Positions 3,583 to 40,112 of a stretch of DNA of 64,000 nucleotides are shown piece by piece. The notes under the pieces were generated by a model. The model was not told the origin of the DNA. It made no database searches and saw only the letters and a program-made list of their open reading frames with translations. Position 1 is the stretch's first letter; the number at the start of each line of letters is the position of its first letter. Source of the stretch: Candidatus Nezhaarchaeales archaeon. GTDB taxonomy: Archaea > Thermoproteota > Methanomethylicia > Nezhaarchaeales > WYZ-LMO8. The stretch lies in contig JAWAKK010000002.1 of the NCBI GenBank assembly GCA_038887515.1, positions 1 to 64,000 on the forward strand, written 5' to 3'. The position numbers and the translations under genes are program-made.

Positions 3583-3640
3583 CGACTAAAACCTCGAAGT
3601 CGAGTAACGCTTAATCTTACTATCTAACATAAATAACTTC

Positions 3641-4084
3641 ATGGCTCATAACGAGTTAAGATTAATGGCTGTAAGCGTGACGAGCCCGCGTCTAAGGAAT
3701 AAAGACTTGCTAATTTACAGCGCTTGCCTACCCACGGAGTATCCAGAGTTGTTTGAGCAAGCAGCCGTGGGTAGGGTGCCGCTGAGTGTATGCATGAGCG
3801 AGGAACATTTAGACAAGGTTGGCTTCAAAATAGCTACGATAATTGCGTATGCTAAGCCCAGCTCGATATCCGTACTAACGATGGACGGCTCACCACACTG
3901 CACGCAATTGCATGCTATAGTTGAGCAAGTAAGAAAGATAGCTAAAGAAGACGTAAGTGTCAAACACTTTGTAGTTGAAAAAGGCGTTGCAGTAGAGGTT
4001 TCAAGTGAAGCGGTCTATCTGTCGAGGCACCTATCGAAGATACACGAGCTTCTTAATGCTCAAGAAACAAGGAAAAGCCTATAA
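3641..4084 (+). CDS. Putative iron-sulfur cluster-binding protein (conserved archaeal family)
   Basis: Motifs SAC, VCMSEEH, MDGSPHC. Confidence 0.55.
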   Translation: MAHNELRLMAVSVTSPRLRNKDLLIYSACLPTEYPELFEQAAVGRVPLSVCMSEEHLDKVGFKIATIIAYAKPSSISVLTMDGSPHCTQLHAIVEQVRKIAKEDVSVKHFVVEKGVAVEVSSEAVYLSRHLSKIHELLNAQETRKSL

Positions 4085-21586: not shown

Positions 21587-23409
21587 GTGAGTATTACCTT
21601 AGAAAGTAAAAGGGTTAGATCGCCTATTCTATGCGTGCTAGGACACGTAGACGTTGGTAAAACGCTCCTGTTGGATAAGATAAGAGGGACTGCAACAATG
21701 TTTAGGGAAGTTGGGGCCATGATGTAGCGCCTCGAGGCGCTACGTGGCAAACCCAACATATTGGTGCGTCCTTCTTACCCTGGTCTGCCTTAGAGAAGAT
21801 TTGTGGTCCATTACTTAGGAGCGTAAAGGTCGAGATCAAGATACCTGGATTCTTGGTTATAGATACTCCAGGTCACGAGGTTTTCGTTAACTTGAGAAAG
21901 AGGGGAGGCTCCATAGCAGATATGGCTATCCTAGTCATAGACGTTCTTGAAGGGTTTGAGGAGATAACGTATGAGTGTTTAGAGATATTAAAGGCTAGGA
22001 GAACCCCGTTTGTAGTCGCTGCAAATAAGATAGATAAGATATCTGGGTGGGTCGAGAACGAGTTTAAACCGTTTACTGAAACAATAAAGCAACAGCCACT
22101 ACAGGTACAGAAGAGGCTCGACGAGCTCATATACGCTATCGTGGCTAAGTTTGAAGAGCTTGGTTTTCAGGCAGATAGATATGACCGGATAAGAGATTTC
22201 ACCAAGACTGTTGCTATAATACCTACTAGCGCTAAGACTGGGGAAGGGATACCTGACTTACTACTAGTCCTAGCAGGCTTATCTCAGAGGTATATGTTGA
22301 AGAGGCTTTTCGTTAAAGAAGATGTAGCTAAGGGAGTTGTGTTAGAGTGTAGGGAAATGCCTGGCCTAGGCACAGTAGCCGACGTTATAATTTACGACGG
22401 CATACTAAGGAAGGATGACGTCATTGTGCTTGGTGGGCTCAAGGGGCCCATTGCGACTAAAATTAGGAACATTCTAATGCCTAAACCTATGGATGAAATG
22501 AGGGACCCGGAAGACAAGTTTAAGAGCGTTGATGAGGTCGTAGCCGCCGCTGGCATTAGAATTGTGGCTCAAGGCCTTGACGAAGCCGTAGCCGGTAGCC
22601 CACTGTTTTCAGCCAAAAGCCAGGCTGACGTGGACGCCGCCGTAAAGCAAGTCTTAGAGGAGATATCGAAGATAAGAATAACTACGGATACGATAGGGGT
22701 CGTCGTTAAAGCGGACACTCTAGGTTCCCTCGAGGCTCTGACCTTAAAGTTGCAGGAGCACAACGTCCCCGTGAGGTTAGCCGATGTAGGAAAGATATCG
22801 AAGAGGGACGTTGTAGAGGCTGCGATAACGAAGGAGAGAGATCCTTATCACGGCGTAATCTTAGCTTTCAACGTAGGCGTAAACCCCGACGCTGAACAAG
22901 AGATAGAGAGCAGAGGCATACCAGTCTTTAAGAGCAACGTAATTTATAGGCTCATAGAGGACTACTTGGATTGGGTTAAGAAGAAGATGGAAGAAGAGCG
23001 TAGGCAAACACTGTCCTCTCTCATATTGCCCGGTAAAGCGCAGATATTGAGGGGTTACGTCTTTAGGAGAAGCGACCCAGCAATAGTTGGAGTTGAAGTT
23101 TTGGCTGGAAGACTTAAGCCGGGATATCCTCTGATGAACGCCAAGGGGAGGAAGCTTGGAACGATAATGCAAATACAGGAGCAGAAGAAGAGCTTGAACG
23201 AGGCGGTTGCCGGACACGCGGTTGCAATATCGATTAAAGGGGACGTAATGGTTGGCAGGCAAATAGACGAAGGAGACTACTTGTATGTTGATGTACCCTT
23301 AGAACACATCCGAATACTAAAGGAGAAGTTTTCAAATCAACTATCAAAAGAAGAGCTAGAGTTACTCGACGAGATAGCGAAAATAAAGAAGACGGCTGGA
23401 AGTTATTAA
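21587..23409 (+). CDS. infB: Translation initiation factor aIF5B (IF-2), two exons: join(21587..21721,21751..23409), 597 aa
   Basis: Exon 1 from GTG 21587 (SD GGAGGTG) encodes [25 protein letters not shown]...REVGAM; exon 2 continues [10 protein letters not shown]...IDTPGHE...NKID in another frame. Confidence 0.93.
21722..21750 (+). other. 29-nt BHB-type intron in aIF5B mRNA (predicted)
   Basis: GTTGGG/CCCAAC exon helix, GCCA/TGGC 4-bp central helix, TG^A and AA^A 3-nt bulges, TGTAGCGCC/GGCGCTACG intron stem; removal restores the frame. Confidence 0.9.
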
Positions 23410-23476
23410 TTAATTCAATGACCTCAAAGTTTTTAGCTAAGCCAAAGAGTGAGTTCACGCTAAGGGGTGAAAGAAA

Positions 23477-23845
23477 ACGCCCGAGTTCAAAGTAGTAGTA
23501 TCCGATCCGTTGACTGGTAAGGCTCAGCAGATAACTGTTAGTGGGCCTCAGGCTAACGCGTTGATTGGATTAAGGATAGGTGATGAAATTGACGGCACGC
23601 TCATTGGAATGCCCGGCGTTAGACTCGTGATTAGAGGTGGAAGCGATAGGAGCGGGGCACCAATGAGGCCAGATCTTCCCGGCCCCGTCAAACGAAGGCT
23701 ATTGCTTAGCCAAGGCCCCGGCTTTAGGCCAGAGAGGAAGGGTCTAAGAAAGAGGAAGCTTGTCCGAGGAAATACTATTTCAGAGGACATAGTTCAAATA
23801 AACATGGCCATAAAGCGCGAAGAAAAGGTGGCTGAAAGTGGCTGA
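23477..23845 (+). CDS. rps6e: 30S ribosomal protein S6e, probable ACG start
   Basis: [37 protein letters not shown]; conserved N-terminus lies upstream of the first TTG (23510). Confidence 0.9.
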
Positions 23846-25123
23846 AGACTGGGTAAAGAGACAGGCCGAACTAAATATCGGTACGACGGGCCACGTGGAT
23901 CACGGCAAGACTACCCTTACTTGGGCACTCTCAGGCGTTTGGGCTTCAAAGCACTCTGAAGAGCTTAGGCGAGGGATAACACTTAGGCTCGGTTATGCGG
24001 ACACCACTGTCCTGAAGTGTCCTAAGTGTCCGCCACCTCAGTGTTATACTACCTACGCGCTATCTGGGACGAGATGCAAGCACTGTGGATCTGACCTCGA
24101 GTTCGTGAGAAAGTATTCCTTCGTAGACTGTCCTGGACACGAGATTGCACGCCCATAATGGGCGTGCAACGTGATATGTTAATGGCTACGATGCTTGCTG
24201 GAGCAACGCTATTTGACGGCGCCATACTCGTGATCGATGCTACAGTTCCATGTCCTCAACCCCAGACGCGGGAGCACTTGAAGGCACTTGAAGTGCTGGG
24301 AGTAAAGAACGTCGTGGTAGTGCAGAATAAGATTGAAGTAGTCTCAAAGGAAAAGGTCGTCGAGAACTATCGCCAGATAAAGGAGTTTTTAAAAGATACA
24401 GCGCTACGTGATGCGCCTATAGTCCCGATATCGGCACTCCATAGAGCAAACCTTGATGTCTTAATAGAGACCATCGAGAAGACCATTCCTACTCCAAAGA
24501 GAGATACATCCAAGCCTCTAAGAGCATTGATAGCCAGGTCATTCGACATAAATAAGCCTGGAACCCCTCCGGAGGAACTAAAGGGCGGGGTCTTAGGAGG
24601 ATCTATAATTCAAGGGATTGCAAGGGTTAGCGACGAGATAGAGATAAGGCCTGGAATTAGGATTGAGAAGGGCGGGAAAGTAGAGTACGAGCCCCTATTC
24701 ACTGAGTTAGTGAGCTTAAAAGCTGGAGACGTAGACGTAGAGGAAGCTAGACCTGGAGGTCTAATAGGGTTTGGCACTAGCCTCGATCCTTCAATAACGA
24801 AGGCTGACTCGCTTGCTGGCAGCGTTATAGGTAAGCCGGGCACATTGCCTCCAACACTTTTCGAATTAAGTTTGGAAGTTGTTCTATTTGAAAAGGCCGT
24901 TGGGACTGTCGAGATGGTGAAGGTTGAAAGCATAAAGCCCAACGAGGTTTTAATGATAAACGTCGGAACAGCTACGACCCTAGGGACTGTGACTAAGTCT
25001 TCAAAGGATATCGTATCATTGAAGTTACGAAGACCCGTCTGCGCTGAAGCTGGAACTAGAGTAGCTGTGAGCCGACAAATAGCTAGTAGGTTTAGGCTAA
25101 TAGGGTACGGAGTTATAAGGTGA
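23838..25123 (+). CDS. eif2g: Translation initiation factor aIF2 gamma, two exons: join(23838..24143,24176..25123), 417 aa
   Basis: Exon 1: [29 protein letters not shown], Zn knuckle, SFVDCPGHE; exon 2: [34 protein letters not shown]. Confidence 0.93.
24144..24175 (+). other. 32-nt BHB-like (relaxed exon helix) intron in aIF2gamma mRNA (predicted)
   Basis: CACG/CGTG central helix, AG^A and AT^A bulges, TTGCACGCCCA/TGGGCGTGCAA intron stem; removal gives DCPGHE-MLMATML. Confidence 0.85.
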
Positions 25124-25141
25124 TTATGGAGGGGCTTAGAT

Positions 25142-25537
25142 ATAGTTAAGGTACTTTTCGACACGAACTTCTTGATGGCGATGTTCGAGAGACCCGTAGA
25201 TGTGGTCAAGAGAGTTGAGGAGGTGCTCGAAGTAAGTGTTGAGCCTGTAATCTTAAAGTCGCAGATCCGCGAACTTGAGAATATCGCTAACTCCGATAAG
25301 AGGCTGAAGGCTTCGAGGACGGCTCGTGCGGTCCTACAGTGCATTAAAGACAGGTTTAGCGTAGTTGAGGATTTTGGAGGAGTCGTCGACGACGTCCTGC
25401 TCGAAGTCTCTAGACGTGAGGGTTACATCGTAGCAACGAACGATAGAGAGCTTCGACGGAAGCTTCGGAGCAACGGTATAAGCGTCATATACTTGAGGAG
25501 TGATGGGAAAGTAGAAATTGAAGGTTTTCAACCTTAG
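25142..25537 (+). CDS. PIN-domain protein (Utp24/Fcf1-like) usually found after aIF2gamma, probable ATA start
   Basis: VKVLFDTNFL...ELE...VDD...VATNDRELR; the catalytic DTN motif lies upstream of the first canonical start (25172). Confidence 0.85.
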   Translation: MVKVLFDTNFLMAMFERPVDVVKRVEEVLEVSVEPVILKSQIRELENIANSDKRLKASRTARAVLQCIKDRFSVVEDFGGVVDDVLLEVSRREGYIVATNDRELRRKLRSNGISVIYLRSDGKVEIEGFQP

Positions 25538-37907: not shown

Positions 37908-40112
37908 TTAGAGTGGCATAAAGTCTTCCGGCTTCGGAATCGTCTTCGGTAGACCTTTCCTCTCCCTTATCTTTAGTATCAAGTCCGTTAGCATTGACTC
38001 GGGAACGGGCTGCCAACCCTTAAACTCAGTAGCCCAGAAGGCGCGGCCAGCAGTTGCACTCCTAATCTCATTGGCGAGGTCGAAGGTCTCGGAGACAGGT
38101 ATCTCGCCCTTAAGAATCATGAGTGTCTCCTGGGCCTCTAAGCTACTTACCTTACCGCGGTGGGTCATAAGCACTCTAGTCAATCCGGAAATGTAGTCCG
38201 CGGGGCACTTAGCTTCTATCTTTAAGATGGGTTCGAGGAGCGTTGGCCTAGCCGAAAGGAAGGCTGCAAATATCGCGTCTCGTAGAGCCGGCATTATCTG
38301 GGCCGGGCCTCGGTGAGCCGGGTCCTCGTGTACGAGGGCGTCTACTAGCTTAACCTTCACTCCACGGCATGGCTCGTGGCATAGAGGCCCTTCAGCTAGA
38401 GCCCACCTGAAGCCCGATATTAATGTGTCCTTGATGTCTCTAAGGTACTGGATACCCTTAGTAACGTCGACGAATATGTTTAAGAAGTCGTCGATAGCCC
38501 ATATACCCCTAGCCTCGTCGGTATCCCAGCCAGCCTCCTCTCTAAGTATCTTAGCGCGCTCTCTCCAGTCCTGGTCGTCGTAGACTCTTCCAGTCTCCAA
38601 CAGCTTAAGGGTCTCCTCGTTGAGGGGTTCTACGACCACGTAGACCCTGTTGTGCTTGTTAGGCGACTTACCTTCAAACGGCCCGACACTCTTCCTAACG
38701 CTCTCGCGGTAGACTACTATTGGGGGAGTAGTGACTACGTCTATCCCGGTCCTCTGCTTCAAGTCCCATAAAGCTATCTCTAAGTGGAGCTGACCCATAC
38801 CTGCGAGGAGGTATTCTCCAGTCTCCTGGTTGATCTTTACGTGGAGTGTTGGATCCTCAATCGCCATCTTCCTTAAGGCATCGACTAGCTTAGGTAAGTC
38901 GCTACTCTTCTTGGGTTCTATAGCTATTGTGACCACGGGCTCGCTAATGTAGCGGAGCCTCTCGAAGGGTATCATGCTGCCCTTGAGTGAGGGGTCTACG
39001 ACCGTCTCACCTGCTCTTGCATGCTCTAAGCCCAGCATAGCAGCAATGTTCCCGGCAGTAATCTTCTGACAGACCTCGCGGTACGGACCCATGTAGAGGC
39101 CGACTTGAGTAATCTTCTCTGAGACCCTACCCATCATTAGGTAGACCTCGCGGCCCTCTTCAACGGTACCGCTAAACACCCTACCTGTGGCGACGAGGCC
39201 TGCGTGAGGGTCAGCTACCACCTTGTTTATGCATACTACGAGCGGCCCCTGATCGTCGCAGTTTATCATGGCCTTGCCTACGGGGCTATCTAAATCGCCC
39301 TTCCAGATCCTAGGGATACGGTACTTCTGAGCCTCCATAGGGTTGGGGACGTGCTCGACAACCATATCAAGGATGGCAGCGTAAAGCGGGAAGTCCTCGA
39401 CCAGCTTATCGTAGTAGCCCTTCTCATAGGCGTCAACTATGTAGCTGAACCTAATACCCTTCTGTTGGGCAATCGGAATAGTTAAGCCCCACTTGTGGAG
39501 AGCTGCGCCGAAAGCCACCTGGCCCTTGGCGGGGTCGACCTTCCACTTATCCCTAAACTCTGGCTCAGCGTGTAAGTCTATTAGGGCGTTGAAGTCCTTA
39601 ATGATATTAACGAACCTCTGCTGAACCTCACTAGCGCTAAGCTTAAGCTCCTTAATCAACCGGTCAACCTTATTAATGTAGAGGAGAGGACGAACGCGCT
39701 CCTCCATAGCCTGCCTAACAACAGTCTCGGTCTGAGTCATAACACCCTCAACAGCGTCAACAACAACAATGGCACCATCCATAACACGAAGACTACGAGT
39801 AACATGACCAGTAAAATCAACGTGACCAGGGGTATCAACTAGATTGATAACGTAAGGCTTACCCTCCCACTCATGGTACAAAGAGACGTTAGCAGCCTTA
39901 ACAGTCATCTGGCGAAGCTGCTCAATCTCAACGTAGTCCAAAGCCAAGGCTTTGCCGGCGACCTTCGGGGAGATCATGCCGGCAGCCATGAGCAAGCTGT
40001 CACTAAGAGTAGTCTTACCATGATCCACATGCGCGAGTGTCCCTATGTTCCTAATCCGTTCTCGATCTCTCATTAACTTCAGGACTTCCTCAGTCTGCTT
40101 GAACTTCACCAC
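37908..40112 (-). CDS. fusA: Elongation factor 2
   Basis: [21 protein letters not shown], diphthamide loop [11 protein letters not shown]. Confidence 0.98.

Follow-up and report, generated by a model that had tools for sequence, protein, structure and literature searches.

The DNA examined here is a window of 64,000 nt, the whole stretch that was analysed, from a contig of a hot-spring archaeon (Candidatus Nezhaarchaeales, class Methanomethylicia). Its region 21587–25537, on the + strand, carries the genes of the translation initiation factors aIF5B and aIF2-gamma, the gene of ribosomal protein S6e (rps6e), and a gene for a PIN-domain protein. Both initiation factor genes are interrupted by a short insert with the characteristics of a bulge–helix–bulge (BHB) intron, and these two inserts are the subject of this report. 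An initial annotation, made from the sequence alone, had described the order aIF5B – rps6e – aIF2-gamma – PIN within 4 kb, and the same order is obtained from the open reading frames (ORFs) and from matches to Pfam and NCBIfam. Position numbers refer to the window unless they are prefixed with G000, which stands for the genome of this archaeon with its contigs C1–C4. The locus is composed as follows:

21587–21721, + strand: aIF5B exon 1; GTG start, 45 codons, P-loop GHVDVGKT, GTP_EFTU profile positions 4–31
21722–21750, + strand: predicted aIF5B BHB intron; 29 nt (3n+2), in-frame TAG at 21725–21727
21751–23409, + strand: aIF5B exon 2; 552 codons plus stop, Pfam GTP_EFTU 61–183, IF-2, and GTP_EFTU_D4
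23462–23479, + strand: rps6e ribosome-binding site AGGGGTGA, then ACG (23477–23479), by direct reading
23477–23845, + strand: rps6e (ribosomal protein S6e); Pfam Ribosomal_S6e, residues 4–116 on profile positions 1–116, E 3.5e-40
23838–24143, + strand: aIF2-gamma exon 1; GTG start, 102 codons, ending in ...DCPGHE, GTP_EFTU profile positions 4–80
24144–24175, + strand: predicted aIF2-gamma BHB intron; 32 nt (3n+2), in-frame TAA at 24156–24158
24176–25123, + strand: aIF2-gamma exon 2; 315 codons plus stop, Pfam GTP_EFTU 85–187 and eIF2_C
25142–25537, + strand: PIN-domain gene (PIN_9/Fcf1-like); Pfam PIN_9, residues 4–120 on profile positions 1–115, candidate starts ATA 25142, GTA 25151 or later

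The aIF5B gene (21587–23409) is interrupted after codon 45, just ahead of the TQHIGA stretch, and its second exon covers positions 45–591 of the 598 positions of the NCBIfam profile PRK04004. The aIF2-gamma gene (23838–25123) is interrupted after the GHE of its DxPGHE motif (DCPGHE^ML, the caret marking the break), and its second exon covers positions 97–411 of 412 in PRK04000. We take the first break to lie in the G2/switch-I region and the second in the G3/switch-II region of translational GTPases, in keeping with the initial annotation, which had placed both inserts in GTPase switch regions. The unspliced frames run into a stop one codon (aIF5B) and four codons (aIF2-gamma) into the inserts, and the resulting fragments of 46 and 106 residues do not contain a complete G domain. 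The earlier statements that both inserts are 3n+2 nt long with an in-frame stop and that no intact factor can arise from unspliced mRNA are thus correct for this genome, the 3n+2 length not being conserved in relatives. The same is true of the statement that EF-2 (39480–40061, − strand, open frame of 738 aa) has no such insertion, as its GTPase profile is matched in one unbroken piece; this is also the case for EF-1alpha on contig C4.

The minimum free energy fold of the aIF5B segment is a BHB motif of −30.1 kcal/mol (z −4.45), which was equalled by none of 200 shuffled sequences. It consists of an outer helix of 6 base pairs (bp; 21710–21715 with 21752–21757), a central helix of 4 bp (21716–21719 with 21745–21748), two bulges of 3 nt each (21720–21722 and 21749–21751), and an inner hairpin at 21723–21744 with 8–9 bp. 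The aIF2-gamma segment folds with −24.5 kcal/mol (z −3.14; equalled by 2 of 200 shuffles) and likewise has a central helix of 4 bp (24138–24141 with 24170–24173) and two 3-nt bulges (24142–24144 and 24174–24176). Its inner hairpin comprises 11 bp here and 7–11 bp among the copies of the family.

For comparison, 30 relatives of the class were used in addition to the genome itself. They are grouped into families f1–f8, and the archaeon's own family, f1, comprises four genera. The aIF2-gamma insert, 31–35 nt long, is present at the same codon in all ten f1 genomes and in none of the 20 genomes outside this family. The aIF5B insert, 22–33 nt long and also at a constant codon, was found in 19 of the 28 loci that were readable among the 30, namely in nine genomes of f1, one of f2, four of f3, and five belonging to two genera of f5. 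In ten genomes, the aIF5B intron is present and the aIF2-gamma intron is missing. Across the class, the aIF5B interruption was also followed with a proxy, an open frame stopping just upstream of exon 2, which matched the direct readings in 28 of 28 cases. About 40 of the 56 evaluable genomes have the intron by this proxy, after exclusion of three matches that were split or partial and of one cut by a contig end, and the genera g12 and g26 each hold species with and without the interruption. By length, 12 of the aIF5B copies are 3n, four are 3n+1, and three are 3n+2; for aIF2-gamma, the corresponding numbers are three, one, and six.

The central 4-bp helix is complete in 18 of the 19 aIF5B copies and in all ten aIF2-gamma copies, and the consensus fold of the aIF2-gamma copies also shows the motif. 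For aIF5B, the RNAalifold consensus of the 19 copies is the same BHB motif, with double-sided changes in six of the seven pairs of the inner helix. The sequences of these inner stems are wholly different between families, and the pairing is kept. Within the consensus, 97.3% of the cells are paired, compared with 30–40% when the partners are slid by one to three columns; double-sided changes amount to 42 cells, and the slid controls have no more than 13. The covariation score was reached by none of 500 shuffles.

Within a BHB bulge, the cut falls after the second base, and the data presented here agree with this position. Excision with this cut position in both bulges yields ...EVGAM^TQHIGA... 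for aIF5B and ...DCPGHE^MLMATML... for aIF2-gamma. The predicted aIF5B join, ...G(A/T)M^TQH..., is read directly in nine of nine intron-less relatives, and the predicted aIF2-gamma join, GHE^M(S)LMATML, in 20 of 20. With high confidence, the two inserts can be regarded as BHB introns.

The enzymes for such a reaction are encoded, as the initial annotation had supposed. The genome contains two EndA-family proteins (tRNA_int_endo), with open frames 195 and 189 aa long, and a single RtcB, all above the curated cut-offs. The EndA-family subunits are located at G000 C1:132718–132975 and C3:63691–63954, and RtcB at C1:94319–95629. ARAGORN places introns in 18 of 46 tRNA predictions, some of which look doubtful. 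Since the enzymes are encoded and tRNA introns are predicted, the splicing pathway is needed in any case.

The two GTPase genes share this type of interruption with other genes. At least eight BHB mini-introns of 20–32 nt occur in at least seven genes of G000, namely aIF5B, aIF2-gamma, cbf5, rpS5, mtnA, hypD, and pyrG, the last of which has two. They were sought by scanning the genome (1.29 Mb) for BHB motifs with an ORF-joining test, followed by candidate-by-candidate homology checks. The motif scan gave no statistical excess, and decoy splice sites shifted by 1–2 nt survived the filtering at about the same rate as the real ones; because operon gene junctions mimic split genes, the scan is unfit as a census. 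The predicted introns outside the locus are:

G000 C1:3238–3267: rpS5 intron, 30 nt; exon 2 begins at profile position 17 of 65
G000 C1:10133–10162: mtnA intron, 30 nt; exons on profile positions 2–155 and 157–337 of 339
G000 C3:12273–12294: hypD intron, 22 nt; exon 2 begins at profile position 29
G000 C2:221611–221630: pyrG intron 1, 20 nt; found by homology
G000 C2:221664–221695: pyrG intron 2, 32 nt
G000 C2:333915–333935: cbf5 intron, 21 nt; found by homology, splits the catalytic Asp codon between its first and second letters

The exon pairs of rpS5, mtnA, and hypD fall on contiguous profile positions, and intron-less orthologues of rpS5, pyrG, mtnA, hypD, and cbf5 read straight across the predicted junctions. 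All sites lie in conserved motifs: THCN^AG in MtnA, CG^THE in HypD, DPY and NPY in PyrG, QTD^AGE in uS5 (the rpS5 product), and the catalytic Asp in Cbf5. The two pyrG introns are 33 nt apart, each follows the hexamer ACCCAT in the same codon phase, and they have their first four and last eight bases in common, which hints at site-directed insertion or a local duplication.

Each of these introns has a distribution of its own. The rpS5 intron is present in 14 of 30 loci (ten of ten in f1 and four of four in f3) and missing from the 16 others. Both pyrG introns occur in all ten f1 genomes and in none of the 20 others, and the mtnA intron occurs in the nine f1 loci that were found and in none of 21 others. 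The hypD intron was detected in 12 of 27 loci, comprising nine of nine in f1 and one genome each of f4, f7, and f8; the 15 loci without it include a congener of the f7 carrier, so that its presence differs within one genus. The cbf5 intron is found in 21 of 30 loci, in f1, f2, f3, f4, f7, and f8, and is absent from f5 (7 of 7) and f6 (2 of 2). Its occurrence in this class widens the known host range of the cbf5 intron.

Some relatives show additional irregularities in the same genes. In the pyrG genes of f4, f7, and f8 relatives (loci L122, L123, and L128–L132), a different, GC-rich hairpin insert is located farther upstream, near the GKG motif, and probably represents a further BHB intron with a different site. 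Single in-frame stops within otherwise full-length matches were seen in mtnA of genomes G011 and G012 and in cbf5 of G017, G020, and G024; such stops may mark additional introns of length 3n elsewhere in these genes. The aIF5B gene of G021 likewise has a single in-frame stop in an otherwise full-length match, and a further 3n-long intron may be situated elsewhere in this gene.

With a probability of roughly 0.8, the aIF5B and aIF2-gamma inserts are genuine BHB introns of mRNAs that belong to a wider set of mini-introns and do not constitute a joint control device. According to this interpretation, the pre-mRNA would fold by pairing between exon and intron bases, which would leave two 3-nt bulges 4 bp apart. 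An EndA-family endonuclease would then cut both bulges, and RtcB would join the exons, presumably in a constitutive manner. The presence of two EndA-family subunits suggests a heteromeric enzyme of broad specificity. An intact GTPase would be encoded by the spliced mRNA only. Most economically, these mRNAs may be considered further substrates of the tRNA/rRNA splicing pathway. The two introns most likely lie near each other as a consequence of the conserved gene order; the order aIF5B – rps6e – aIF2-gamma – PIN is kept in relatives both with and without introns.

As a population, the mini-introns would be specific to the lineage, passed on by vertical descent, lost now and then, and gained step by step along the branch to family f1. 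A conserved motif would provide an invariant exon half for the BHB, and imprecise loss would be lethal there. Their persistence at conserved sites would follow the same logic as that of inteins and homing introns, which persist at the most conserved catalytic sites, where imprecise loss would be lethal. In contrast to these elements, the introns described here, which are 20–35 nt long, encode no endonuclease or ribozyme and would be removed at the RNA level by host enzymes. As an alternative to its own proposal, the initial annotation had mentioned that a family of micro-introns may simply use the two genes as conserved and safe sites, and it is this alternative that the evidence favours.

A BHB intron in the cbf5 pre-mRNA of Crenarchaeota was reportedly described by Watanabe in 2002 and by Yoshinari in 2006. 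The splicing of this intron, whose site lies in the catalytic Asp codon, has been demonstrated experimentally, and other archaeal mRNA BHB introns were regarded as predicted but not confirmed, according to a later article (PMC2738675, Yokobori 2009). The introns of the present set resemble the crenarchaeal one in splitting a catalytic motif, in having a length free of the reading frame, and in being lost in a lineage-specific manner, and G000 carries the same cbf5 intron at the same codon position. They differ from it in that the host genes also include aIF5B, aIF2-gamma, rpS5, mtnA, pyrG, and hypD, with at least eight introns instead of one, and in that they belong to the Nezhaarchaeales within the Methanomethylicia instead of the Desulfurococcales and Sulfolobales; their splicing is predicted. 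With the BHB introns of archaeal tRNA and rRNA they share the two 3-nt bulges and the 4-bp helix, and EndA and RtcB are encoded in this genome. Here, however, the motif is part of an mRNA, and its exon half consists of codons.

Another mRNA case is the BHB intron in the 5' untranslated region of Haloferax volcanii HVO_1309, which a 2020 paper presents with cbf5 as the only other case reported by then (PMC7714728). It is similar in being an EndA-type substrate in an mRNA, which is predicted from sequence for the introns discussed here, but it lies in the 5' untranslated region, whereas these are situated in coding sequence and break the reading frame. The literature searched, consisting of the main texts of articles outside subscription journals, contained no protein-coding gene with a reported archaeal BHB intron except cbf5, and nothing on BHB introns in aIF5B, aIF2-gamma, Nezhaarchaeota, or Verstraetearchaeota. 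In the reference list of a paper from 2025, the cbf5 work is still the only such work cited (PMC12397907). What is new is thus the extension of the known cbf5 type of mRNA intron to several genes, with two essential initiation GTPases among the hosts.

These findings matter for the biology of archaeal RNA as well as for the annotation of the metagenome-assembled genomes (MAGs) concerned. In these MAGs, aIF5B, aIF2-gamma, uS5, PyrG, MtnA, HypD, and Cbf5 will appear as fragments or pseudogenes, and such fragmented calls lead to lower completeness estimates and distorted marker-gene trees. In addition, the introns offer a natural series of gains and losses in archaeal protein genes that can be dated on the tree, and substrates for studying how EndA recognises motifs partly built of codons.

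Several observations weigh against the favoured interpretation. Of the flanking helices of the strict hBHBh' motif, aIF5B has those on both sides, whereas aIF2-gamma has the inner one and an outer helix of just 0–1 bp, which makes it a relaxed motif. Relaxed BHB forms require an enzyme of the heteromeric or epsilon type, according to published accounts (PMC5829648), and cleavage of aIF2-gamma without an outer helix presumes an enzyme of broad specificity. Covariation in aIF2-gamma amounts to two compensated pairs, both from one genome (G009). The census of introns is incomplete, for the cbf5 intron and the first pyrG intron escaped the motif scan and were recovered by homology; the eight introns in seven genes are therefore a lower bound. 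Three metatranscriptome runs from the same study gave no reads on 21587–25537, at a coverage too thin to bear on splicing, with five reads in the whole 8-kb stretch, all at 20.1–20.2 kb and in one run. Furthermore, 69 of 72 intron copies among the relatives have a stop in the frame of the upstream exon, whatever their length modulo 3, while the other two frames are stopped in 50 and 22 of the 72. Finally, four of the seven host genes (aIF5B, aIF2-gamma, uS5, and Cbf5) serve translation or ribosome biogenesis. The exon-frame stops and the share of translation genes could hint at a function beyond neutral persistence; shared descent or a detection bias towards recognisable, conserved genes could also yield them.

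The remaining two genes of the locus are relevant to the question of control through their start codons. In rps6e, an in-frame TGA lies at 23468, and the first ATG, GTG, or TTG after it is the TTG at 23510. The ACG at 23477 follows 6 nt past the strong ribosome-binding site AGGGGTGA and stands at the same place as the start codon of the relatives. This initiator position is ACG in nine of the ten family genomes (three genera), ATG in G009, and ATG, TTG, or GTG in the outgroups. In the archaeon itself, the frame is closed three codons upstream, and a start at the next canonical codon would drop the conserved N-terminal strand. A GTG valine codon located 5–7 codons downstream of the ACG in eight of the nine ACG genomes is a candidate for an alternative start. 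The ACG may be a weak near-cognate start, or RNA editing or another route may be involved. An upstream exon supplying an ATG, with a BHB joining ATG 23418 to 23480, was rejected as the helices do not pair. It is also contradicted by G009, which has ATG and is colinear with the ACG genomes, so that the difference between ATG and ACG is a plain substitution.

In the PIN-domain gene, no canonical start precedes the VLFDTN strand, and the ATA at 25142, 9 nt past GGAGG, is one candidate. The corresponding codon in relatives is TTA, CCA, GCG, ATA, or GCA and hence not conserved. The first codon of VLFDTN, four codons after the ATA, is GTG in all eight relatives of the family where this motif was located and GTA in the archaeon itself. 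Of the non-AUG starts named in the initial annotation, the ACG is thus confirmed at the initiator position of rps6e, and the ATA of the PIN-domain gene is reduced to one candidate among others.

A rough screen for ORFs led by a Shine–Dalgarno sequence gave 476 with ATG, GTG, or TTG and 44 near-cognate candidates, 21 of which have no canonical start in the next nine codons. In three genes, the N-terminus of the Pfam family falls on the near-cognate codon:

G000 C1:116715, − strand: MtrH-like gene, ATA or ATT; no canonical start nearby
G000 C2:349949, − strand: tetrapyrrole methylase gene, CTG; no canonical start nearby
G000 C2:115515, + strand: TFS-like gene, CTG; no canonical start nearby

Odd start codons are not peculiar to this locus.

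Among the other explanations, one that we consider unlikely assumes that the Methanomethylicia, and f1 above all, harbour a population of BHB micro-introns that is still expanding by insertion at half-BHB sites of mRNAs, and that the EndA/RtcB capacity throttles translation output. If true, a primitive splicing-dependent throttle on translation would exist in an archaeon, acting via the introns kept in the catalytic motifs of aIF5B, aIF2-gamma, uS5, and Cbf5, almost all of which have an exon-frame stop.

The initial annotation had proposed a dedicated control locus for initiation. In this model, splicing out the aIF5B and aIF2-gamma introns would be rate-limiting and would make the supply of the initiation GTPases dependent on EndA/RtcB capacity in a manner resembling HAC1/XBP1, with the non-AUG starts of rps6e and the PIN-domain gene as a second gate. 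We regard it as rather improbable. It can draw on the position of the introns in GTPase switch motifs, where they stop the reading frame, on the retention of the aIF5B intron over much of a class, on the exon-frame stops, on the ACG conserved in rps6e, and on a negative regulatory role that earlier authors proposed for the cbf5 intron (PMC2738675). The systems are also alike in that HAC1/XBP1 mRNA is cut and joined without a spliceosome by IRE1 and a tRNA ligase or RtcB, with RtcB-type ligation in metazoa, and in that the unspliced form is inactive. However, in the archaeon there is no change of a C-terminus, the same class of introns is also present in housekeeping and metabolic genes, and no sensor and no stress-sensing or otherwise dedicated nuclease is evident, none having been searched for. 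A switch between two functional products was not found either, as the unspliced frames give truncated fragments.

The genome-wide and comparative results speak further against such control. Introns are scattered over the genome, and like ones are found in mtnA, pyrG, and hypD, which are unconnected with initiator tRNA. Among relatives, they are patchy and uncoupled: the two GTPase introns are not co-inherited, and by the open-frame proxy, the aIF5B intron is present in some and absent from other close relatives within each of the genera g12 and g26. Scattering over unrelated genes and patchiness among relatives are two of the three observations that the initial annotation itself had named as refuting its proposal. 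The co-conservation of introns and non-AUG starts that control of this kind would suggest was not seen, since G009 has both introns and yet an ATG at rps6e, the PIN ATA is not kept, and near-cognate starts occur at unrelated genes too.

The chances are still slimmer that the introns are actively mobile, spreading into half-BHB sites, for example by reverse splicing, subsequent reverse transcription, and recombination, or through recombination of a homing-like kind. Such spread would fit the twin pyrG introns with their common hexamer, phase, and ends, the gain by f1 of at least four introns absent from its sister families, the hypD intron at one site in scattered lineages, and the cbf5 intron at the same site as in the distant Crenarchaeota. 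Yet loss alone can explain the patchiness, and within f1 each intron is present and colinear in every genome read, as vertical descent predicts. Near-identical intron copies in different genes were not seen, and neither was a reverse transcriptase or homing endonuclease, though none was searched for. It is hardly credible that the inserts are assembly errors, pseudogenes, programmed frameshifts, or sites of translational bypass, because, in spite of homopolymer frame shifts in nucS of this assembly, they are structured, 29 and 32 nt long, inserted at the identical codon in 10 to 19 genomes assembled independently of one another, and equipped with covarying stems in essential genes that are otherwise intact.

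As for nucS itself (G000 C1:733470–734400), it was rejected as a split gene, as single-base shifts at runs of A5 and G5 are present without an insert; they reflect either homopolymer assembly errors or a decaying gene. Other candidates from the scan were also discarded. The segment C2:44395–44424 is a gene junction between an ABC ATPase gene and that of a membrane protein, and C1:402387–402441 as well as C1:99465, C2:297459, and others are gene junctions or coding sequence. C1:8277–8324, in the L14 gene, is in frame and probably coding. Within the window, a canonical-looking BHB fold of 54 nt, in frame and free of stops, is located at 3727–3780 inside the ORF 3608–4084. With an inner helix of 10 bp, an outer helix of 3 bp, and a core of −18.3 kcal/mol, it may be an in-frame intron or a chance structure.

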